DNA of 64,000 nucleotides from an uncultured Acidimicrobiales bacterium. Lineage in GTDB: Bacteria; Actinomycetota; Acidimicrobiia; Acidimicrobiales; SZUA-35. Both the position numbers and the translations under genes were made by a program. The stretch covers positions 19,443 through 83,442 of the forward strand of contig CALKZY010000017.1 in assembly GCA_938002965.1 (NCBI GenBank), in the 5' to 3' direction. The notes beneath the pieces are model-generated. The model worked only from the letters and a program-made list of their open reading frames with translations, did no database searches and was not told the origin of the DNA. Shown piece by piece: positions 4,028 to 62,107 of the stretch. Within the stretch, counting starts at the first letter, position 1. Every line of letters begins with the position of its first letter.

Positions 4028-4318
4028 TCATCGTTTGCCGAGGAACTCGTAGATTTCCTTGCACTCGGGACACACCGGAAACTTCTTGGGGTCACGATTC
4101 GGTACCCACTTCTTGCCGCAGAGAGCGCGCACCGGAGTCCCTTCCACCGCAGCCGACAGGATCTTGTCCTTCTTGACATAGTGAGCGAACTTTTCATGAT
4201 CACCGTCGTCCAAGATCGGATCGCCAAGCTTTGGATCAACGATCTCCTCCACAATCGTTGACGGCCCAGGCGACGAGCTAACCGGTGACTGTTGGATTCC
4301 AGAAGTCAGAGAAGGCAC
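4028..4318 (-). CDS. DUF3039 domain protein
   Basis: 96 aa. KFAHYV...ALCGKKWVPNRDPKKFPVCPECKEIY matches the actinobacterial DUF3039 family from memory. GTG start with AGGA about 9 nt upstream. Confidence 0.75.
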   Translation of the reverse strand: MPSLTSGIQQSPVSSSPGPSTIVEEIVDPKLGDPILDDGDHEKFAHYVKKDKILSAAVEGTPVRALCGKKWVPNRDPKKFPVCPECKEIYEFLGKR

Positions 4319-4328
4319 AGCTTCATCC

Positions 4329-4364
4329 TAGAAGGGCCTGATACTAGAAGGGCCTGATACTAGA
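4329..4364. repeat. 16-bp tandem direct repeat (2.25 copies) in divergent promoter/5'UTR region
   Basis: TAGAAGGGCCTGATAC occurs at 4329-4344 and identically at 4345-4360, followed by a partial TAGA. The repeat lies 11-46 nt upstream of the DUF3039 start. Confidence 0.8.
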
Positions 4365-4499
4365 TGAGCCCCGTACTGCAACGGCACATACGGTGGAGGC
4401 GCCGATGGCCCACACCTATGATCGACAGGGGCTGGCACAATTACTGCCCCGTCACCGACGCCAAGACAACCGTCAACCGCTACCAAGAGGAATCGCCAG

Positions 4500-4961
4500 A
4501 TGCTGGAACCAGGAACCGAGGCCCCGGACTTCACCGCCATGGGCAACAATGGCGAGAAACAGACGCTTTCTGACCTCCGAGGGTCCTGGGTTCTGCTGTG
4601 GTGGTATCCAAAGGCAGCGACTCCCGGTTGAACGATGGAAGCAGACGGCCTGCGTGATCAGGCCAAGCAGTTCGACGATGCGGGCGCCAAGATTCTCGGG
4701 ATCTCATACGACAGCCCTGAAGACAACAATGCATTCCACCAAGACCGCTGTCTTCCATTTCCCTTGCTATCAGACAGCGATCGATCGATTGGCGCGGCCT
4801 ACGGTGCCCAGCGCGGGCCAGACGAGGCCTTCGCCGACTTCCCTAAGCGGGTCAGCTATCTGATCGATCCTGACGGCGTGATCCTCAAGGCATACGAAGT
4901 CGACGACCCAGCGGGACATGGGGCAGAGGTGTACGCCGACCTGCAGGCAGCGCTGCGCTGA
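4500..4961 (+). CDS. bcp: Bcp/PrxQ-type peroxiredoxin with in-frame UGA (predicted selenocysteine) at the peroxidatic position
   Basis: ATG 4500 has AAGAGGAA 9 nt upstream. Translation gives MLEPGTEAPDFT...LLWWYPKAATPG-TGA(4629-4631)-TMEADGLRDQ..., continuous with the listed ORF 4635..4961. It aligns to E. coli Bcp YPKAMTPGCTVQACGLRD (from memory) with TGA at Cys45. Total is 153 codons, the typical Bcp length. Confidence 0.8.
4647..4664 (+). other. candidate bacterial SECIS hairpin for the peroxiredoxin UGA
   Basis: GGCCTG-CGTGAT-CAGGCC forms a 6-bp stem with a 6-nt loop containing GU. It starts 16 nt after the TGA at 4629. Confidence 0.4.
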
Positions 4962-4979
4962 GACGCCCTCTAGCGGCAG

Positions 4980-5594
4980 TCAGTGGATGAGGGCTACACC
5001 ATCGAGTGCTGGCCCAGGCACCGGCACTGGCCAAACCCCAGACGGCAACACCAAATGGGTCATGGCGACGTCGTGGGAGTCGGTCGGCAGTTTATCGACA
5101 AGGTGTCCCCCGGCGATACCGAGGAAGTCCGGCTGCAATCGATTCGTCGACGTGAGGCGAGCTAAGAAGCGGTCGTAGTAGCCTTTGCCGCGCCCCAACC
5201 GGTTCCCGGTGCGGTCAAACCCTAGAGCGGGGACAAGGACCGCACCGATGTCGCCGTCGTCGATCTGAGGGGCATCAGCGCACGGCTGCATGTACCCGTA
5301 GCGATGACGCTTCATCGGACCACCGAAGGGGTGAACAGTCAGGGCATACCCCTCATCGGGTGTCCGGGTGACGGCAAACCTTGAGTGGGGCGTCGGGTGG
5401 CTGGACATGACCTCGCTCAGATTGACCTCTTCGGGCAAGGCATCGTAGACAACGACCCGCTGGTCGGCCGGCACCTCGGCTGCCAAATAGTCGCTGACCA
5501 GCCGACAGATGCGGCTACTGGCCGCTCCCTCAACCTCTTCGAGTTCAGCCGATCGGAGTCGGTTGCGCCATGTCAACTTGCGGTCGCCAGTCAT
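4980..5594 (-). CDS. 5-formyltetrahydrofolate cyclo-ligase
   Basis: The C-terminal 204 aa of the 334-aa ORF carry GAVLVPALGFDRTGNRLGRGKGYYDRFL, the MTHFS signature. Start is moved to ATG 5594 because the upstream extension overlaps the divergent M20 gene. Confidence 0.8.
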   Translation of the reverse strand: MTGDRKLTWRNRLRSAELEEVEGAASSRICRLVSDYLAAEVPADQRVVVYDALPEEVNLSEVMSSHPTPHSRFAVTRTPDEGYALTVHPFGGPMKRHRYGYMQPCADAPQIDDGDIGAVLVPALGFDRTGNRLGRGKGYYDRFLARLTSTNRLQPDFLGIAGGHLVDKLPTDSHDVAMTHLVLPSGVWPVPVPGPALDGVALIH

Positions 5595-17901: not shown

Positions 17902-20058
17902 CTAGCTTGGCGACTCGTTCAGGAACGTCTTACGAGTCGGCCGGTCGTACGGAGAGCGTAGGGGGAAGCGTTTCACCAATCCCTTGGCTTGGCTCACCCA
18001 CTCGTCTCGCTCGATGCGGCCTGGGAAGGCGTCAATCGCATCAGTTACCTTGGCTACGTCAGCTTTCTTAAAGGCTGACAACTGCTCCCAGGTCTGGATA
18101 CCGAAGCCGTTGAGCGTCTTCTCCATCACCGGACCGATGCCGTTCACGACCTTCAGATCATCTTTGTGAACTGCCCCGGCCGTGCCGAGCTTGGTCGTTC
18201 CACGCTGCCAGTCCGAACCTGAAGGCGGCTTCTTCGACACCTTCTTAACCGCTTTCTTGGCGGCCTTCTTCTTGGCAGGCTTCTTCTTTGCCTTCGGTGC
18301 TGAGGTGTTCTCCCCCGGAACGTGCCCGGCGTCGAGGAGCTTCTGCGCTCCACCCTTCCAATCATCACGTTCAATCCGACCAGGGAAGGCATCGATTGCC
18401 TCGGTGACCTTGTCGACGTCACCCTTGGTGAAGGCTGCCACCTGCTCCCAGGTTTGGATGCCGAAGCTATTCAGCGTCTTCTCCATCACCGGACCGATAC
18501 CGTTGATCCGCTTCAAGTCGTCGCGATGGTTGGCTCCCGGCGTTCCAAGCTTGGTAGTGCCCTGGCGCCATGAGTTGCTCTTGGAGGCTGAACTCTTCGA
18601 TGCTTTCTTGGCCTTTTTCTTCGCCTTGCCAGCAGCCTTTTTGGCATCCTTGGCGTCTCGCTCAGCGTCAGCAAGTTGCTTGCGGAGCTGCTCGATTGTC
18701 CGGTCCCGTGTCGGCACCAGTGCGGCCTTGCGTTCCGCATCAGCCAGTTGCCGGCGCAGATCCTTGGACTGATCGCTCTCGCTCTTCGCTGTAACACGAG
18801 CGGTCTCAAGATCTTTGCTTGTGGTCGTAAGCCTTGACTCGAGGCCAGACACCTTGCTGGCGTCAGCCTTGAACTTGGCCAGCTCCGACTGCAAACCAGC
18901 AACCTTGCCAGCATCAGCCTTCGCCCTAGCCAACTCCGACTGCAAACCAGCAACCTTGCCAGCATCAGCCTTCGCCTTAGCCAACTCAGCCTCAAGACCA
19001 GCAACCTTGCCAGCCTCAGCCCGTGACTTAGCCAACTCAGCCTCAAGACCAGCTGACTTATCAGCCTCTGCCTTGAAACCCTGAATCTGCGACTGCAGAC
19101 CACCAACCTTGCCAGCCTCAGCCTTCGACACGTCCAAGTCCTTAGACAAAGTCGCAACCCGAGCCTCAAGACCAGCAACCTTGCCAGCATCAGCCTTCGC
19201 CTTAGCCAACTCAGCCTCAAGACCAGCAACCTTGCCAGCATCAGCCTTCGCCTTAGCCAACTCAGCCTCAAGACCAGCTGACTTATCAGCCTCTGCCTTG
19301 AAACCCTGAATCTGCGACTGCAGACCACCGACCTTGCCAGCCTCAGCCTTGAACTTCGCCAACTCGGCTTCCAGTCCACCAACCTTGCCAGCATCAGCCT
19401 TCGCCTTAGCCAACTCGGCTTCCAGTCCACCAACCTTGCCAGCATCAGCCTTCGCCTTAGCCAACTCAGCCTCAAGACCAGCAACCTTGCCAGCCTCAGC
19501 CTTGAACTTCGTAAGATCGGCTTGTAGACCGGACACCTTGCCAGCATCAGCCTTTGACACGTCCAAGTCTTTCGACAAAGACGCAACTCGAGCCTCAAGA
19601 CCACCGACCTTGCCAGCCTCAGCCTTGAACTTCGTAAGATCGGCTTGTAGACCGGACACCTTGCCGGCCTCAGCCTTCAGGCTGCTGATTTCGGTCTCAA
19701 GCTCAGAGGTCCGATCAGCCTTGCCGCGAAGGGCGACGACCTGTTGTTCAAGGCCGGGAACCAAGTCGGCTTTCGACTTGAAGCCCTTCAGCTCTGACTC
19801 GAGGCTTGGAACCTTGTCGGCTCGCTGCCGGACTCCATCTAGTTCAAGCTGAATCTCGTCAGCCCTTGTCTCTGCTGTCTTCAGCTCCGTAACCCGACGA
19901 CGTAGTCGATCGGTCTCGGCTTCGCTCTCGAGGCGGATTCGTTCCCGCTCGGCGACTTCGCCACGACGACGCCACCACCACCAAAGCAGTCCGAGTAGCA
20001 ATCCCAGGAGGAAGCACAGCAGCAGTGCCAATGCAATCGTTCCGAATAACCAACCCAT
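17902..20058 (-). CDS. membrane-anchored repeat protein: N-terminal TM, about 20 x 17-residue coiled-coil repeats, two C-terminal Lys-rich plus helix-hairpin-helix-like modules
   Basis: 718 aa. The TM (LFGTIALALLLCFLLGLLLGLLWWWW) is followed by RRRGE. Residues about 78-420 are tandem KA[DE]AGKV[AG]GL[EQ]AELAKA units. Two copies of ...DDLK.[IV]NGIGPVMEKTLN.FGIQTWEQ...FPGRIERD[DE]W follow, each preceded by a KKAKK-type tract. Confidence 0.8.
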   Translation of the reverse strand: MGWLFGTIALALLLCFLLGLLLGLLWWWWRRRGEVAERERIRLESEAETDRLRRRVTELKTAETRADEIQLELDGVRQRADKVPSLESELKGFKSKADLVPGLEQQVVALRGKADRTSELETEISSLKAEAGKVSGLQADLTKFKAEAGKVGGLEARVASLSKDLDVSKADAGKVSGLQADLTKFKAEAGKVAGLEAELAKAKADAGKVGGLEAELAKAKADAGKVGGLEAELAKFKAEAGKVGGLQSQIQGFKAEADKSAGLEAELAKAKADAGKVAGLEAELAKAKADAGKVAGLEARVATLSKDLDVSKAEAGKVGGLQSQIQGFKAEADKSAGLEAELAKSRAEAGKVAGLEAELAKAKADAGKVAGLQSELARAKADAGKVAGLQSELAKFKADASKVSGLESRLTTTSKDLETARVTAKSESDQSKDLRRQLADAERKAALVPTRDRTIEQLRKQLADAERDAKDAKKAAGKAKKKAKKASKSSASKSNSWRQGTTKLGTPGANHRDDLKRINGIGPVMEKTLNSFGIQTWEQVAAFTKGDVDKVTEAIDAFPGRIERDDWKGGAQKLLDAGHVPGENTSAPKAKKKPAKKKAAKKAVKKVSKKPPSGSDWQRGTTKLGTAGAVHKDDLKVVNGIGPVMEKTLNGFGIQTWEQLSAFKKADVAKVTDAIDAFPGRIERDEWVSQAKGLVKRFPLRSPYDRPTRKTFLNESPS
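18799..19827 (-). repeat. in-frame tandem coding repeat array (51-nt unit, 225-nt higher-order unit)
   Basis: Units of 17 codons recur about 20 times. A block of more than 70 nt starting at 19031 is repeated identically starting at 19256, an offset of 225 bp (75 codons). Confidence 0.9.
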
Positions 20059-20138
20059 CTTCTAATTAGCTCCCTTTGTGATGTCGCCGACGTCGGCTCG
20101 TGATTTCGATTTCGTTCTTGTCGTTCGATCTGTCAATG

Positions 20139-26248: not shown

Positions 26249-28231
26249 CTACCCGGACCTGTAGCGGTCTCGCAATCGGCGAACCAATCGGACTGTTCTA
26301 ACTCCGACACGACTGGCCGGTGACGACAGCACCTCCGAGCCCTGACTCCACTGCCGTGGCTGACGGCAACCCAAAACATCGGACAGGTGGTACGGAGCGA
26401 CCACGGGTCGAACCGTCGTCCCTGCCTCGTCATGTTCGAAGCCAAGAGCAGTCATGGACTCGGCTTCCTGCTTAGAAGGGCGATTCCACCACTGCCCCAG
26501 CGTTGTGCGAACCTCGCTGTCCAACACCACCGGCGAAGCCCCCCAGCCGGTCAACGTTTTTTGTGACGGCACAAGAGCAGCCATTCTCGTCGCTCCTCGC
26601 CACATCTCGCTGCGATACTCGTGGCCCAGATCGGCCGGACCTTGTTCATAGACGAGCTCGACTTCACCACCGGGCCCGCGCGAATAGTCGACAACTCTGG
26701 CCTTGCCTGATGCCGTTATCGTCTCCACGGTGGACACTGGGCCGTCCAGCGGGTCCGGAGACGAGACACCGTCGAATGCAAACCGTTGAATACGCACTCC
26801 ATCTTCGATGCCTGGTATGACCTTGTCACCGCCAAAGTGAAGATGCAGCGGCTCGTGCTCCAAGTACTCCCGCAACACCGATGACAGCAGCCAGGCCAAA
26901 CGACCACGCCAGCCAACATCAATGAGTGCCAGTTGTTCACGGCCGATCCCCTGACTGCGGACATGATCCAAAAGCAGGTCGCGTCGAGTGGCGGACCGAG
27001 CCTGAATCAGCTTCGCAGCCATCGGATCAAACAGCAGCTCATGCCAATGAGCAACGTTCTTCGGACTCAATGCGTTATCGGGTGCCAGCCGGGCCAATGG
27101 ATGGCCCACGCCAAGAACGTCAGCTACGTCTTGTGTGTCGAATCCGATTCGATCAAGAAGCAGAGAGAACGGAACGACATGACGGTTCACCTCAAGGAAG
27201 GCGTCGTCGGAGGCCGTCCCGTCGCTCAACCATTGGTCAATACCGACAGCTGATGCCGAGGCCAAGGTAACGATCAGACGGTTGCAGTGCAGGTATGAAG
27301 ATGGTAGGGCGCCCAGGTGATCACCACTCATGACTTCAGAGACCAACATGGGCAGCTCGCCGTCTCGGGCTAGAAATCCGACGTGGCCGACATCGTGTTG
27401 CCGACACTGCTCGGCCACCCACAAAACAAAGGCGGCCATGACGGGCCCGGCAACCTGGGTACCAACAAGCTGGAGCTGATACTCACGCTCACTTACCAAA
27501 CCGACCCGCCGCTCCTCCTCCAACTCGAGTCGGGCAAGTCGCGAGGCGGACGCCAACGCCGGGCCGAAACTTCTCGGCCGATGACTCATTGCCTCCTCGT
27601 GTCGGGTGAGGTTCCCGTCATCGACGATGAACGGCCGGAAGCCGTGGGCCGCGGCCATCACACCGTCGGACCACGCATTGTTCCCGGCGTGCCAAACCAC
27701 AACCGGTCGATCGGGCCAGATTCTGTCGAACAGTCGCCCGTCGGACTTTGTGGTTCCCTCCTCACAGGAGGCGATCACCCGATCGCCCTCCTCAAACAGA
27801 TGGAAACTCTCAAGAATCTGTTGGAGTAGGGCTGAGGATCGATCGGTGTCGGAGATGAACGTGACATGTCCCACAACAGACCGAACTTTGGCCAGCGCTG
27901 CCCGGACACCGGCAACCGGCCGACACATTTCGACCTCGAGAATGCCTGCCTCTTGCGCCCGCAGGCCTTGGCCCTCCGCTGCAGAATGTCGCTGCGCCAC
28001 CCGATGGTCGATGGCGTGCTCTATCGGATCATCTCCGGCCAGGTCACGAACGATACAGGTGTCAAAAACGTCGACCGTGACCGCATCGGGCCGATCCTGG
28101 ACAACCCTGTCGGCGAACGTCGGCCACGACAGCTGCTCCAGACCGAAACCCTGCCGGTGAAACCGGATGAGCAGGCGGGGACCAACCCAAGGGACAGCGG
28201 CGAGACGCTGGGCGAGGACAGGGGGAAACAC
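26249..28231 (-). CDS. large HAD-superfamily-like hypothetical protein (COG5610-like)
   Basis: 660 aa. DVFDTCIVR resembles HAD motif I of the D[IV]FDT[LC][IL]xR type. A later LIDVGWRGR segment resembles the second module of COG5610-type proteins, from memory. Confidence 0.55.
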   Translation of the reverse strand: MFPPVLAQRLAAVPWVGPRLLIRFHRQGFGLEQLSWPTFADRVVQDRPDAVTVDVFDTCIVRDLAGDDPIEHAIDHRVAQRHSAAEGQGLRAQEAGILEVEMCRPVAGVRAALAKVRSVVGHVTFISDTDRSSALLQQILESFHLFEEGDRVIASCEEGTTKSDGRLFDRIWPDRPVVVWHAGNNAWSDGVMAAAHGFRPFIVDDGNLTRHEEAMSHRPRSFGPALASASRLARLELEEERRVGLVSEREYQLQLVGTQVAGPVMAAFVLWVAEQCRQHDVGHVGFLARDGELPMLVSEVMSGDHLGALPSSYLHCNRLIVTLASASAVGIDQWLSDGTASDDAFLEVNRHVVPFSLLLDRIGFDTQDVADVLGVGHPLARLAPDNALSPKNVAHWHELLFDPMAAKLIQARSATRRDLLLDHVRSQGIGREQLALIDVGWRGRLAWLLSSVLREYLEHEPLHLHFGGDKVIPGIEDGVRIQRFAFDGVSSPDPLDGPVSTVETITASGKARVVDYSRGPGGEVELVYEQGPADLGHEYRSEMWRGATRMAALVPSQKTLTGWGASPVVLDSEVRTTLGQWWNRPSKQEAESMTALGFEHDEAGTTVRPVVAPYHLSDVLGCRQPRQWSQGSEVLSSPASRVGVRTVRLVRRLRDRYRSG

Positions 28232-28444
28232 TCATAGAGCATAGAGTCCATCCGCGCTGACTTTTGCCCGCCCAGGCAGCTCTTCTCGCTGCCTCTTGGA
28301 CTATCTTGACCGTCACTGAGTACGATCAGCGGTTTCGACCGCGAATAACCTTCAGCTCCGAACTGTTGAAATCGGGTAGCTTCGACCTCGAGGCTGACAG
28401 CACTACAGCTCACATTTGCAAGGAACGGGTCAACGATGTCGTCC

Positions 28445-29497
28445 ATGGCAACGCCACGAAAACGGCTCACAGAATTCAGTCACGGCGCTGGTTGAGCTTG
28501 CAAGCTCAGCCCTTCTGAGCTTGCGCACGTGTTGCGCGATCTAAACCCGGTTGCTGACGAACGGCTCATGGTTGACGCCACGACCGGTGACGATGCTGCC
28601 ATCTGGCGAATGGATGACGAACGAGCCCTCGTCTTAACTGCCGATTTCATCACCCCCATCGTCGACGACGCCACACAATGGGGACGGATCGCTGCGGCCA
28701 ACGCCGTATCGGACGTCTATGCCATGGGCGGCCGACCTTTGGTTGCGCTCAACCTTGTCGGATGGAACCGTGACGAACTCCCACTTAAGCTGCTGGCCGA
28801 AGTACTGGCAGGTGCAGGCGAAATTGCGGCCGAAGCAGGGTTTGTCATAGCCGGCGGTCACACCGTCGACGATCCCGAGCCCAAATTTGGACTGGCAGTC
28901 GTCGGAGAAGCTCACCCTGACCGTCTCCTCACCAACGCCGGGTTCTTACCTGGCCAGGATCTTATATTGACCAAGCCGCTCGGCATCGGGGTTGTCGCCA
29001 CCGCCATGAAGCGCGGAGCGTTGGCTGGTCCAGAGTTCGCTGCCCTGAGCGAATCAGCCGTCGAGTCAATGACGAAGCTAAATGATGTGGCAGCCAAGGT
29101 CGCCCTCGAAGCCGGTGCGACCGGGGCAACGGACATAACCGGATTTGGCCTGCTAGGCCATATGGCCAGAGCAGCCCGGGAGTCAAGAGTCGACGTTTCA
29201 ATTCACATCCCTAACGTCCCAGTCCTGGCTGGGGTCGCCGAACTGGCTCGTGCCGGTTTCGTGCCTGGCGGGTCAAGCAGAAACTTGGAGTCAGTACGTT
29301 CTCAACTGAACGTCGGATCGGCGGACGAAACCGGTGTCCTGCTCCTGGCAGACGCTCAGACATCCGGAGGACTCCTCTTCGGGGTCGCCGCGGACAAGAC
29401 AAACGAATGCCTCGACCAGCTAACCGATTCCGGTCATCAAGCTGCCGTCATCGGCCGAACCGATGAGGGTGCCGGTCAAATCAACCTTGTGGAGTAG
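28445..29497 (+). CDS. selD: selenide, water dikinase (selenophosphate synthetase) with in-frame UGA (predicted Sec)
   Basis: From ATG 28445 the translation reads MATPRKRLTEFSHGAG-TGA(28493-28495)-ACKLSPSELAHVLRDL..., continuous with listed ORF 28529..29497. E. coli SelD is [20 protein letters not shown] (from memory), so TGA aligns with Cys17 and the Lys20 equivalent is conserved. 350 codons, with the AIR-synthase-like motifs DDAAIW and GRIAAANAVSDVYAMGG. An in-frame ATG at 28436 is an alternative start. Confidence 0.88.
28500..28524 (+). other. candidate bacterial SECIS hairpin for selD UGA
   Basis: GCAAGCTCAG (28500-28509) pairs perfectly with CTGAGCTTGC (28515-28524). The loop is CCCTT. 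The hairpin begins 5 nt after the TGA. Confidence 0.45.
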
Positions 29498-32155: not shown

Positions 32156-32246
32156 CCAGCCATTCCGGGGCCATTGCCGACAGATACATCGTTGCGAGGC
32201 GACGGGGTTTGATCATCAGAAGTCCGACAGGTGGAGGTTATCTCGG

Positions 32247-32331
32247 TGCCCGGGGCGGGACTCGAACCCGCACGGAGGTTTCCCTCCCGAGGGGTTTAAG
32301 CCCTCTGCGTCTGCCATTCCGCCACCCGGGC
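32247..32331 (-). tRNA. tRNA-Leu (anticodon UAA)
   Basis: The reverse complement folds as a cloverleaf. Acceptor is GCCCGGG/CCCGGGC and D arm is GCG-GAATGGCAGA-CGC. Anticodon stem GAGGG/CCCTC carries loop CTTAAAC (anticodon TAA). There is a long variable arm, T arm GCGGG-TTCGAGT-CCCGC and discriminator A. CCA is not encoded. Confidence 0.9.
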
Positions 32332-32438: not shown

Positions 32439-33866
32439 CTAGAACCGGAAACCGGGCGTTACGTGATTAGGAGAGGTGGCAACACCAAGCAGATTCAACA
32501 TGGCCGGAGCGATCTCGAACACGTCGACGGGTTCGAGACCAACCTTTGAAAATCTTCCAGAGTTACAGACGCCCAGTGTCCCGAGCGGGCTGTGTCGACC
32601 GCTCGAATGATCATCGACCTTCAAGATCTCGACCCCAACCTCGCCAGGGCGGCCGATCGAGCCTCCCAACGCCAGGTTGCCCTCATCCAGAACCTCGAGA
32701 TCGTAGGTGAAGGTAAGAACTGCGTCGGTCCGGTCGACACGAGCCTCATCGCTACCTCCCGACAGGTTCGCCAGCACCTTCTCAGCCTGCTCGCATTCAT
32801 CGGCCGTCGGGAACCGCAACGTCAGATTGGGGGTCATGGCTCCGAGGATCTCATAGCGCCCAGAGATCCCAATAGCATCAAGGAAAAGCTGCGGATCGCG
32901 AATAACCGCTTCCAAGGACCTCGAAGCATCCAAACGAGCGCTGGGCCCCTGCCCCATGGAAGAAACAATCACGAGAACGCGTTCATTCAGGCGGCACCAG
33001 TGAGCCACGTCACCAAGAAACCGGTCGACCAGTTCAACCGCAACGACAATTTCATCGTTGTGTCGACTAACCCAGTCTTCGTCGTAGTGGCTCGAGGTGA
33101 AGTCGTTGGGAAACATTGCGTACCAATAGCGATGCATCGCAGCCGCTACGTGATTGGTGAAGAACACCGCCAGATCCGGCGCCTCATCGTTCAACAGCCG
33201 GAGGAACAGGTCCGACAGGATCAAGAACTGGGCTGAGCGCAGCCGCTCCTTCGGTACCTTTCCAGCAGCCACCAGCCCGAGCATGCGGGCCAAGTTTGCC
33301 GCTGTCGCCGGACGCAGGGGTAGATGGCGCACCCCTTCAATTAGCGACTTCACTTGAGAGCGGTCCACAGCCAAACGGCTCTGACGTGAGTTTCGCTCCG
33401 TCAACTCCAGATTCAGTCGCTGAAATCCTTCAAAACGCGACGGCACTGTCGTCGGCTCGGAGGCGAAACAGTCAGGAATGACGAATCGGTAATCACCAGG
33501 TCGGCACTGCTGCTTCAGCGGCGACGAATGTAACACATTGACCAGTCCAACTGACCTACTGGCAGCGGCCTGCTGCCAGTAGAAGGGAAACTCAGCCGGC
33601 TTCGGGTCGTTGTACCACCAGATTCCGTGCCGCGCATAGGGGACGCCGGTGCCGACCGAGGCCCAGGTCTGAGACGGATACAGCTCGCGATCCAGCGATT
33701 CCGCAATCTTCGTTTCGACGAGCAACTTGTCGTCAACCATGGACTTGAGGAACGGCGCTCGGCCTCGCTCCGCCACGTCGGAGATCACCCGCAACGGGAT
33801 CTCGTTGATCTCAATAACAACAGCGCGGCCGGACATGAGTTCACAATCGGCACTACCGAAGCCCAC
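32439..33866 (-). CDS. hypothetical protein, possibly alkaline-phosphatase-superfamily (phosphodiesterase/pyrophosphatase-like)
   Basis: 475-aa ORF. PSQTWASVGTG, NHVAAAMHRYW and DDHSSGRHS loosely resemble metal-ligand and nucleophile segments of AP-superfamily enzymes. The functional call is weak, and the start is either 33866 or ATG 33836. Confidence 0.55.
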   Translation of the reverse strand: MGFGSADCELMSGRAVVIEINEIPLRVISDVAERGRAPFLKSMVDDKLLVETKIAESLDRELYPSQTWASVGTGVPYARHGIWWYNDPKPAEFPFYWQQAAASRSVGLVNVLHSSPLKQQCRPGDYRFVIPDCFASEPTTVPSRFEGFQRLNLELTERNSRQSRLAVDRSQVKSLIEGVRHLPLRPATAANLARMLGLVAAGKVPKERLRSAQFLILSDLFLRLLNDEAPDLAVFFTNHVAAAMHRYWYAMFPNDFTSSHYDEDWVSRHNDEIVVAVELVDRFLGDVAHWCRLNERVLVIVSSMGQGPSARLDASRSLEAVIRDPQLFLDAIGISGRYEILGAMTPNLTLRFPTADECEQAEKVLANLSGGSDEARVDRTDAVLTFTYDLEVLDEGNLALGGSIGRPGEVGVEILKVDDHSSGRHSPLGTLGVCNSGRFSKVGLEPVDVFEIAPAMLNLLGVATSPNHVTPGFRF

Positions 33867-33911
33867 CTGAGACGGCCCGGTGCACCGCCCTTGCGATAGG
33901 AAGGCGCTGCT

Positions 33912-60240: not shown

Positions 60241-62019
60241 TTAGTCAGCAGCGTTGTCTTGGAGCTGCTCGGCTGCCTCGTCGGCCCTTCCAGCGGTGAC
60301 CGCCTCGGCGGTGTCGGCCCGCCGACGAACCGCGGTCAACTCCCCCAGGTTGGCGACGAACAGCACAATTGCCGCCGCGGTCAAAAGCGCGGCAACTACG
60401 TAGACGCTGACACTCAGCACACCCGATGCCACCGCCCTTAGGGCAAGAAAGGCAGCTACGACCACGGCGTAGACCGCGGTCAAGCGAAGGGCTGGACCGA
60501 AGTGGCGGCGCACCAACTGCTCAAGCAGAGAGAACCCGGCGGCCACAACGGCAACCACGGTGGTCACCCGAAGCGGATCGAATACCAGCATGGAGGCAAA
60601 GGCCAGGATTAGTAGCGGGACGCTGACAGCGGCCCAGCCGGCCAACAACCAACCGGCCTCCTGTGGGGGCGCAAGCGGAACTGCGGCCTGAACAAGGTGA
60701 TCTCGAATTCCGGTTACCTTCTGTTGGCCCCGTCGCAGTCGGGCCTGAAGGTCGGATAGTTCTACCCGTCGCCGAAGAAGGTCGCTCAACCGTTCGGAAG
60801 CCTCATAACGACGGACCGGGTCATCCACCTGGCCGAACACGGGAAGAAGCCGAGATGACCGGTCAATCTCAGAGTCGACCTCCTCCAACGCCAGACGAAT
60901 GCTCTCCTCGGACGCTACCGCTCGAGCCTGGGACGGCGGATTCGTTCCGTGAAGACCGGCGAAACCTACAGGGTCGGCCCACGATGCCCGCACATCGCCT
61001 GACCGGGTGAATTTTGGTCCGGCAGGTCCACGTTCTCCATTGGTTCTGTCTCCGGTGTCGAGGCCCCAGAGGCCGCGATACTGACCGGCCCAGGGAACAC
61101 TGTCGTCCAACAGACGAAGGTCCCAGTCGCCGTGCTCCAATCCGTCTCCAGGGGCAGAATCGACAAATGGGACACCAACTGCCGGACCGAGACCTCGTTC
61201 GGCTGCCTGGTCAGGGATCTGTAGAGCCCGGCGGACCCATCGTTGGAGACGCAGCAGCCATCGCAGTCCGGGGACATCAATGCGGGTTATGTAGTCACCC
61301 GGCAAAAAGAACAACGCATGTGATCCAGCTCCGACGAACAAGACCGGACGGTCCCCGCGGCGCTGTAGCTCGACGTCATCCCAGTGCCGGCGAAGGTTGG
61401 CACCGTCCAACTCGTGATTGGATACCACCACCCAGACGGGGCTGCGATCAGATGGATCACACATGATCCAGATCTGTTCCCAGTCAGCCTCATGATCGTT
61501 CAAACCCCGATAGCCGGACCGCCAATCATTCATGGCGTAGAAATAGGCGTAGTGGAGGACCGTCCAGTTGGCGATTTCAGCCACTCGACCGTACACGACC
61601 GGCCGGGGTCCAGTTTCAAGTTCCGCCGATTTGATAGCAGCGGCAGGGGTCGTCAAACCAGGGGTGGTAGGCCTAAACCACACGCTGGCTAAAAAGAGAG
61701 CATCAACCATGCGACCGAAGAGGCCGACGCGACCGAGACGCGGGCCCAACAACCGGCGGGCCAGCTGACGAGCGTCGGTCCGAACTACGGCTCGACGTTC
61801 GGTGTCGGAAATGAACTGGAGGTAGGTGCCCACCGGCAGTTCACCGGTCAGATCGGCCAATCGAACGTGCCCGGCTTCGGCCAGCTGCTCGGTGTCGGAC
61901 CAAAGTGAGCACGACTGAACGTACGGATCCACCGGTGCGGGAAAGAAAAGCTCTCGCTGATCGAAGCGCAATACCGGTGCGTGTCGGATCAGAAGATCGC
62001 GGTCGTCTCGAGTGTTCAT
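60241..62019 (-). CDS. membrane protein with N-terminal Vps62/DUF946-like domain and C-terminal multi-TM region
   Basis: 592 aa. RHAPVLRFDQRELFFPAPVDPYV and YAYFYAMNDW...NDHEADWEQIWI resemble Vps62-family motifs from memory. A coiled-coil segment follows, then about 4 hydrophobic spans. Confidence 0.6.
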   Translation of the reverse strand: MNTRDDRDLLIRHAPVLRFDQRELFFPAPVDPYVQSCSLWSDTEQLAEAGHVRLADLTGELPVGTYLQFISDTERRAVVRTDARQLARRLLGPRLGRVGLFGRMVDALFLASVWFRPTTPGLTTPAAAIKSAELETGPRPVVYGRVAEIANWTVLHYAYFYAMNDWRSGYRGLNDHEADWEQIWIMCDPSDRSPVWVVVSNHELDGANLRRHWDDVELQRRGDRPVLFVGAGSHALFFLPGDYITRIDVPGLRWLLRLQRWVRRALQIPDQAAERGLGPAVGVPFVDSAPGDGLEHGDWDLRLLDDSVPWAGQYRGLWGLDTGDRTNGERGPAGPKFTRSGDVRASWADPVGFAGLHGTNPPSQARAVASEESIRLALEEVDSEIDRSSRLLPVFGQVDDPVRRYEASERLSDLLRRRVELSDLQARLRRGQQKVTGIRDHLVQAAVPLAPPQEAGWLLAGWAAVSVPLLILAFASMLVFDPLRVTTVVAVVAAGFSLLEQLVRRHFGPALRLTAVYAVVVAAFLALRAVASGVLSVSVYVVAALLTAAAIVLFVANLGELTAVRRRADTAEAVTAGRADEAAEQLQDNAAD

Positions 62020-62107
62020 GGCTCTACGCGAGTCGGCGCCGGAACAAATGCCGGCGCCGACTTATCAGAATGTTCCATCGGGCAGCGCCGATCGGATGCA
62101 GTCCTTA

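Follow-up and report, generated by a model that had tools for sequence, protein, structure and literature searches.

Does a UGA codon in the middle of a peroxiredoxin (Prx) gene end the protein, or is it read as selenocysteine (Sec)? The question is raised by the locus at positions 4500–4961 of a 64,000-nucleotide stretch of DNA (in the following "the window") from an uncultured Acidimicrobiales bacterium, a member of the Acidimicrobiia, Actinomycetota that live for the most part aerobically in the sea and in soil. The codon lies where thiol peroxidases of the Bcp/PrxQ branch carry their peroxidatic cysteine, it is shared by most of the related loci, and it is followed by a hairpin in which compensatory changes have kept the base pairs. 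We consider it highly probable that the gene encodes a Bcp/PrxQ-branch thiol peroxidase of 153 residues with Sec as its peroxidatic residue (U44), and that the hairpin acts as the selenocysteine insertion sequence (SECIS).

Reading frame and protein family

The frame that opens with ATG 4500 runs through 43 sense codons, a single in-frame TGA (4629–4631) and 109 further sense codons before it reaches its stop, and the list of open reading frames (ORFs) of the window holds for this locus only the part from 4635 to 4961 (108 amino acids, aa). The elements of the gene are the following:

4485–4492, forward strand: Shine-Dalgarno-like sequence AAGAGGAA, read directly from the sequence, with the ATG 7 nt further on
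4500–4961, forward strand: coding sequence of the putative Sec-peroxiredoxin of the Bcp/PrxQ type, 153 codons followed by the stop TGA (4959–4961)
4608–4631, forward strand: active-site motif P37-x3-T41-x2-U44 (PKAATPGU), matching YPKxxTPGC in solved structures of Bcp/PrxQ
4629–4631, forward strand: UGA codon 44 at the peroxidatic position, very probably read as Sec, with the TGA conserved in relatives
4848–4850, forward strand: Arg117, the conserved peroxiredoxin active-site arginine, an invariant alignment column

An ATG stands at the codon equivalent to 4500 in 75 of 81 aligned homologs, with N-termini that read ML..., and the ortholog length is 153 aa in 55 of the 81 genes. For profile and structure searches of the 153-residue product, Cys was written at the internal stop. 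Pfam AhpC-TSA (PF00578) matches residues 4–129 of the 153 in a hit that spans the TGA (E = 1.6e-35, 122.2 bits against a cutoff of 26), and the best matches in the PDB are 5enu (1e-22), the Xanthomonas Bcp structures 5iph/3gkk and Sulfolobus 3drn, which align over nearly the full length at E = 1e-22 to 1e-19. The top 14 chains in this ranking are all Bcp/PrxQ, and AhpE, Prx1 and Prx6 follow at 1e-11 or worse. In the alignments with 5enu, 5iph and 5iox the TGA falls on the Cys of YPKxxTPGCT, and R117 pairs with the arginine of (E/K)R(S/V)(T/S)(F/Y)LID in the Bcp chains. Given these profile and PDB matches, we take the fold as settled. A preliminary description of the window had read the frame from ATG 4500 in the same way, as 43 codons and a TGA within a Bcp-like product of 153 codons, and had placed the TGA on the peroxidatic Cys; the first is corroborated by the sequence and by the Pfam match across the TGA, the second by the structural alignments. 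The distance of 9 nt that it gave for the sequence upstream of the ATG has to be corrected, since the gap between AAGAGGAA and the ATG is 7 nt.

Among the NCBIfam models, the top matches of the window protein are Bcp and PrxQ, but neither score reaches the respective cutoff: NF006960, the E. coli Bcp equivalog, covers residues 2–140 with 100.8 bits (cutoff 140), and NF053650, the PrxQ of Deinococcus, reaches 96.7 bits (cutoff 260). No equivalog cutoff is reached by the window protein, and no curated NCBIfam model names its clade. By these scores, the protein belongs to a Bcp/PrxQ-like clade of its own and is an equivalog of neither E. coli Bcp nor PrxQ.

Conservation of the UGA codon

Relatives were collected in a scan of one genome per species, which gave the 80 closest loci (49–84% identity), almost all of them from metagenome-assembled genomes (MAGs) of Acidimicrobiales/Acidimicrobiia. 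The Sec-type set used below (n = 77) consists of the window and the Sec-form loci among L001–L079, where L stands for loci and P for database proteins. Read directly from the DNA, the peroxidatic codon is TGA in 76 of the 80 closest loci and TGC in four (L059, L065, L077 and L080), and the UGA aligns with the Cys of the Cys-type relatives, that is of these four, of L081–L083 and of P0002–P0012. The motif YPKxxTPG* is near-universal in the related loci. The TGA is not specific to the strain, a point on which the preliminary description had asked for a check, as the relatives carry TGA rather than TGC at codon 44.

The reading frame is preserved on both sides of this codon. Upstream of the UGA, amino acid identity to the window is 61% and substitutions at codon positions 1/2/3 amount to 0.30/0.26/0.57; the corresponding values downstream are 52% and 0.34/0.30/0.53. 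Judged by this substitution pattern, the 42 codons 5′ of the UGA are under constraint equal to that on the downstream part. Met46, with which the 108-aa ORF begins, is missing from most orthologs, which have TL, TA or TI after the UGA instead of TM, so that the start of the fragment is not conserved.

The matches of a protein search fall into two classes, the first being full-length Cys-type relatives with 62–63% identity and the motif YPKADTPGCT, and the second consisting of many fragments of 103–111 aa that cover only the C-terminal ~70% of the query. The latter are the footprint of truncated gene calls with varying start positions. The database entry P0001, which is 99% identical to the window protein, is a nameless protein of 108 aa, just the misannotation that had been anticipated for this gene.

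Contigs from two independent marine-metagenome runs (~139x and ~53x) show no difference from the window across the TGA, and since two independent samples of high depth agree, the TGA is not an assembly artefact. As a separate observation, in both runs the Logan contigs break at the two ends of the 35 nt from 4623 to 4657, within which lie the UGA and the hairpin's 5′ half, and in run X2 the depth over this stretch is 120, as compared to 53 and 43 in the flanking contigs. These observations point to a second population, present alongside the first, with an identical stretch 4623–4657.

A conserved hairpin downstream of the UGA

The hairpin that we take as the SECIS lies inside the coding sequence and overlaps codons G50-L51-R52-D53-Q54-A55, with 15 nt between the UGA and the stem:

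4647–4664, forward strand: candidate bacterial SECIS (bSECIS) hairpin, stem 4647–4652 (GGCCUG) with 4659–4664 (CAGGCC), loop CGUGAU at 4653–4658

The model of the bacterial SECIS describes an apical loop of 3–9 nt on an upper stem of 4–16 bp, a G within the first two loop positions that is usually followed by G or U, a spacing of 16–37 nt between UGA and loop, and a minimum free energy (MFE) of −7.5 kcal/mol or lower (PMC13188914, Fig. 2A). The window hairpin falls within the model on all four counts, with a 6-nt loop on a 6-bp stem, G and U at loop positions 2 and 3, a spacing of 21 nt and −9.3 kcal/mol. The same is true, with uninterrupted stems, for 67 of the 77 Sec-type genes as against 146 of 1540 codon-shuffled controls (9.5%), and in most of the remaining Sec-type genes the hairpin still forms, with a bulge or mismatches. 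In most relatives the stem is 7 bp long, and the median MFE over the 75 relatives with a candidate hairpin is −10.5 kcal/mol.

Conservation of the pairing goes along with changes in sequence. In the alignment of the 77 sequences, 89.4% of the cells of the stem are paired, a value that drops to 17–58% once the 3′ partner is slid, and 26 cells show a double change, compared to 7.0 ± 2.3 in shuffles, none of which reached 26 (0/500). The codons for Leu51 and Gln54 occur as CUG/CAG in 48 sequences, UUG/CAA in nine, UUG/CAG in one and CUG/CAA in none (Fisher p = 9e-10, for sequences that are not independent), and compensatory U-A and A-U pairs turn up at unconnected places in the tree, where G-U intermediates are seen as well. 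A synonymous AGC likewise changes together with GCU such that the pair is kept, and in GFRDR(T/A) variants the amino acids are altered and the stem is retained as GGGGUUC/GAACCCC. The codon of Arg52 in the loop is CGU in all 77 Sec forms, although CGU makes up only 9.8% of the Arg codons in the remainder of these genes; the four Cys forms that are more distant use CGC here and lack the hairpin. No alternative conserved structure was found within 70 nt 3′ of the UGA. Because of the pair counts, the linked rare codons, the stem that is kept despite amino acid change and the CGU loop codon, the comparison of these genes indicates that RNA-level selection on the hairpin exceeds the codon effect of GLRDQA.

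The hairpin GGCCUG/CAGGCC with its GU-containing loop had been noticed earlier, and its conservation with compensatory changes is now confirmed; of its position, given as 16 nt downstream, it holds that the stem starts at the 16th nucleotide after the UGA, but the intervening gap is 15 nt. With the E. coli fdhF-type SECIS and the bSECIS consensus it shares a stem-loop within the coding sequence just 3′ of the UGA, a small loop with G-U and a spacing within 16–37 nt. It differs from the fdhF type in its unrelated sequence and in its uninterrupted helix of 6–7 bp, a bulge being present in some relatives only. We describe 4647–4664 as the putative SECIS of this gene, to which SelB would bind.

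Selenocysteine-related genes in the window

The only gene of the Sec pathway encoded in the window is selD, and it appears to be a selenoprotein gene itself:

28436–29497, forward strand: selD (selenophosphate synthetase), Sec-type, with UGA 28493–28495 in SHGAG*ACK

In tblastn the product aligns with E. coli SelD over 347 aa at 40% identity, with the stop at the position of Cys17, and it scores 371 bits with TIGR00476 (cutoff 125), in agreement with the preliminary description, which had listed a Sec-type selD in the window. Of 80 related metagenome loci, 76 share the UGA of selD. Downstream of this codon are two hairpins: a perfect 10-bp stem at about 28500–28524, whose loop CCCUU lacks a G, and a second one that agrees with the bSECIS model at a spacing of 32 nt and whose loop CGUGU resembles the loop CGUGAU of the Prx gene. 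For Actinomarina, an Acidimicrobiia lineage, selA, selB, selC and selD together with a Sec form of SelD have been reported from all 84 complete genomes (bioRxiv 10.64898/2026.04.03.716425).

Other candidates for Sec genes were sought among 198 pairs of ORFs of the window that are joined in the same frame by a UGA, 17 of which have a bSECIS-like hairpin. Only Prx and selD look coding on both sides of the UGA, and the remaining pairs were rejected as Arg/Pro-rich off-frame translations.

Alternative explanations

Several observations weigh against Sec insertion at a SECIS. The genes selA and selB and the tRNA-Sec (selC) were not found in the 64-kb window (Pfam on 20 ORFs including every ORF of the size of SelA or SelB; ARAGORN; Rfam), where their absence is uninformative about the whole genome, nor in ~1.8 Mb of flanks of 160 related loci (ARAGORN, tblastn), a weak negative in which the SelA and SelB probes were E. 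coli sequences without a positive control and the SelD probe did match. A full Sec pathway in the source genome is thus assumed. Concerning the RNA, the 72-nt stretch downstream (4629–4700) folds no better than shuffles (z = 0.32), the signal being confined to the local hairpin. No SECIS match was obtained in Rfam, either for the window at the gathering threshold or for the UGA/hairpin stretches of Prx and selD at E ≤ 10; the scans returned only a tRNA-Leu plus chance matches to lncRNA and miRNA families, and as Rfam holds no general bacterial SECIS model this null is uninformative either way. Furthermore, GLRDQA written in the preferred codons of GC-rich genomes is partly self-complementary by itself, and the Cys-type relatives L081 and L082 retain the hairpin, for which reasons the presence of a hairpin alone is no proof of SECIS function.

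If the gene were a pseudogene or a nonsense allele, the TGA would terminate translation and at most the 108-aa ORF 4635–4961 would be made. The ORF list and the public gene calls, which contain this piece only, are in line with this, as is the frequent use of UGA as a genuine stop in the window, where it terminates 20 of the 45 long ORFs, the Prx gene itself included. It is however difficult to reconcile with a TGA in 76 of 80 species-level relatives, in which the 43 codons before it are under purifying selection. A product starting at 4635 would have neither a ribosome-binding site ahead of it nor, in most orthologs, the internal Met46, and it would lack the entire PxxxTxxC active site as well as the beta-strands with which the fold begins. 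The conservation of the TGA, the constraint on both sides and the independent contigs leave no room for a pseudogene, for a nonsense allele limited to this strain or for a sequencing error, and we give this explanation practically no weight. The UGA could instead be read through by something other than Sec, by near-cognate Trp or Cys decoding or after a lineage-wide reassignment, with the hairpin slowing the ribosome or arising as a by-product of the protein sequence. Compatible with this are the lack of selA, selB and selC in the window and the related flanks, the persistence of the hairpin in two Cys-type relatives and the fact that Sec incorporation is a matter of inference. Yet the stop codon usage of the window, with UGA at the end of those 20 long ORFs, rules out a reassignment, and a Trp at the peroxidatic position would mean a dead enzyme. 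The UGA occurs only at the position of the catalytic Cys and alternates there only with TGC in the relatives, and such an alternation is the classic signature of a Sec/Cys pair (PMC1794560; PMC13188914). The hairpin, in addition, agrees with a Sec-specific model and its invariant loop G-U is kept by a rare codon, and the window encodes a SelD whose own UGA is conserved. Read-through without Sec is in our view improbable.

The gene might also encode a selenoprotein in which the hairpin 4647–4664 is no functional SECIS but is conserved through the GLRDQA helix and codon bias, another element acting in its place. That GC-rich genomes favor GGC-CUG...CAG-GCC as codons for G, L, Q and A, that the Cys forms L081 and L082 retain the stem, and that RNAalifold on the 50-nt alignment yields four pairs only and a consensus of −0.36 kcal/mol would all be expected in this case. 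The poor RNAalifold score is explained, though, by register variants with loops of 5, 6 or 7 nt or with bulges. Preferred codons do not account for the synonymous rare codons that covary (UUG with CAA, AGC with GCU), for the GFRDR(T/A) variants that keep the stem, or for the uniform CGU of the loop, and the stretch downstream of the UGA offers no other conserved structure. We regard this possibility as very improbable, and retain the reading of the gene as a Sec-peroxiredoxin whose own hairpin directs Sec insertion.

Cysteine content and proposed catalytic cycle

The window protein has no resolving thiol at the +5 position, as had been described before: residue 49, directly before GLRD, is an Asp here, and in 76 of the 77 Sec forms it is Q, K, R, T, D or E. 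A Cys occurs at this position in the one remaining Sec form and in the Cys-type L080. No Cys at all is present in 16 of the 77 Sec forms, among them the closest relatives L001 and L002. The only Cys of the window protein, C84, was considered as a resolving Cys and ruled out as it is not conserved, being present in 1 of 77 Sec forms and replaced by Gly in the 99%-identical P0001. A further Cys, Cys63, is found in 59 of the 77 Sec forms, with Ala, Gly, Val or Leu in the others and Ala in the window protein.

For the decoding we propose a scheme built on the established bacterial Sec pathway. The hairpin 15 nt 3′ of the UGA would serve as the SECIS, with the G-U at loop positions 2–3; SelB carrying Sec-tRNA(Sec) would bind it and, competing with RF2, bring Sec to the UGA. 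Selenophosphate provided by the SelD of the same window, presumably itself a UGA/Sec protein, would be the selenium donor. In the finished enzyme, the site formed by P37, T41, U44 and R117 would reduce H2O2 or organic hydroperoxides, the attack of U44 on the peroxide giving a selenenic acid. Because a +5 Cys is missing and the sole Cys (C84) is not conserved, a "1-Sec" cycle is to be expected, in which the Se-OH would be attacked directly by an external thiol, either of a thioredoxin-like protein or of low molecular weight. We infer Sec insertion, SelB binding, substrate and reductant, whereas what is observed is the reading frame, the family, the place of the UGA and its conservation, and a hairpin that is conserved and shows covariation.

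Relation to known selenoproteins and evolution of the clade

COG1225 is the Bcp class. Sec-containing Prx with a TxxU motif (PF00578/COG1225) have been catalogued as a bacterial selenoprotein family since 2005 (PMC1088965, PMC1794560; reviewed in PMC13188914), as the preliminary description had rightly presumed in calling such families known, and 12 of them were counted in genomes in 2006 (PMC1794560). The gene of the window shares with this family the AhpC/TSA fold, a probable Sec at the peroxidatic position of PxxxTxxU that is paired with Cys in homologs, a candidate bSECIS directly downstream inside the coding sequence, and its origin from a marine metagenome. It is very probably a genuine selenoprotein gene of an already known type and has the defining features of the Sec-Prx family, an assignment made on these features. 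With the Bcp/PrxQ thiol peroxidases the protein has in common its size of ~155 aa, the motif YPKxxTPG(C/U)T and the active-site Arg, and it differs from them in a peroxidatic residue that is very probably Sec instead of Cys and in having no +5 resolving Cys (D49). Another Sec-peroxiredoxin, PrxU of Eubacterium acidaminophilum, was characterized in 2001 (Sohling et al., as cited in PMC13188914). It is likewise a bacterial peroxiredoxin with a Sec at the peroxidatic position that is decoded from UGA, but it belongs to a different Prx subfamily (NF040737, model of ~233 aa), and with 63.2 bits against a cutoff of 270 the window protein is no ortholog of PrxU.

In a quick neighbor-joining tree, Cys forms are scattered within the Sec clade. 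The Cys-type loci L081 (285–334) and L082 (1630–1679), which correspond to P0003 and P0004, are nested inside this clade and combine a TGC at the peroxidatic codon with a retained SECIS-like hairpin; the Arg codon of the loop is CGC in L081 and still CGU in L082. As Cys forms sit inside the Sec clade and two of them keep the hairpin, a direction from Sec to Cys is suggested, and L081 and L082 look like recent reversions with a relic SECIS, which we offer as a lead only, coming from a quick tree. A genome survey had inferred five Cys-to-Sec and no Sec-to-Cys events for Prx (PMC1794560), whereas in the Acidimicrobiia Cys forms with a relic hairpin appear nested in a Sec clade. It is conceivable, although we would not put the chances of it as high as even, that Sec is both ancestral and dominant in a distinct Bcp/PrxQ-like clade that extends across the Acidimicrobiia, with Cys-free members that are obligate "1-Sec" peroxidases and with repeated Sec-to-Cys reversions that left relic SECIS elements behind.

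Genomic surroundings

By Pfam on the window ORFs, the neighbors of the Prx gene are a nucleoside hydrolase, a PfkB kinase, a 5-formyl-THF cyclo-ligase and an M20 peptidase, and no redox partner is encoded adjacent to it. The stretch 4250–5100 gave neither a promoter-like nor a terminator-like site. An intergenic perfect tandem repeat of a 16-mer (CTAGAAGGGCCTGATA, 2.3 copies) lies at 4328–4364, ~135 nt upstream of the Prx start; its absence from the closest relatives L001 and L002 indicates a lineage-specific insertion or duplication.

Elsewhere in the window, a tRNA-Leu(UAA) at 32245–32331 (reverse strand) is the sole tRNA. Three long ORFs on the reverse strand have no Pfam match at E ≤ 1e-4, namely 26252–28231 (660 aa), which adjoins selD upstream on the opposite strand, 32442–33911 (490 aa) and 60244–62061 (606 aa). 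The ORF 17905–20061 (reverse strand, 719 aa) shows an unusual pairing of a SoxA/TsdA-type cytochrome c with a helix-hairpin-helix, in weak partial matches only.

Implications

The understanding of Sec decoding and of peroxiredoxins is not changed by this gene, whose main value lies in annotation, together with a modest evolutionary and enzymological opportunity. Dozens of orthologs from Acidimicrobiia MAGs are stored as nameless fragments of 103–111 aa since gene callers routinely truncate them, and with a selenoprotein model made for them many records could be corrected and the selenoproteome counted more accurately for a lineage that is abundant in sea and soil. That one window encodes a probable selenoenzyme of peroxide defence as well as a Sec-type SelD is further evidence for a wide use of Sec in the Acidimicrobiia. 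Some interest, if a modest one, attaches to the spread of the clade across the Acidimicrobiia, to its Cys-free members, to the apparent Cys revertants with a relic hairpin, and to the fact that the clade is unnamed in NCBIfam. On the reading in which Sec is the ancestral state, the Cys-free members would be recycled directly by an external reductant, and the clade would be one that public annotation truncates systematically. With its Sec forms with and without Cys63, its Cys-free forms and its putative Cys revertants with and without a relic SECIS, the clade would offer a natural series on the benefit of Sec.

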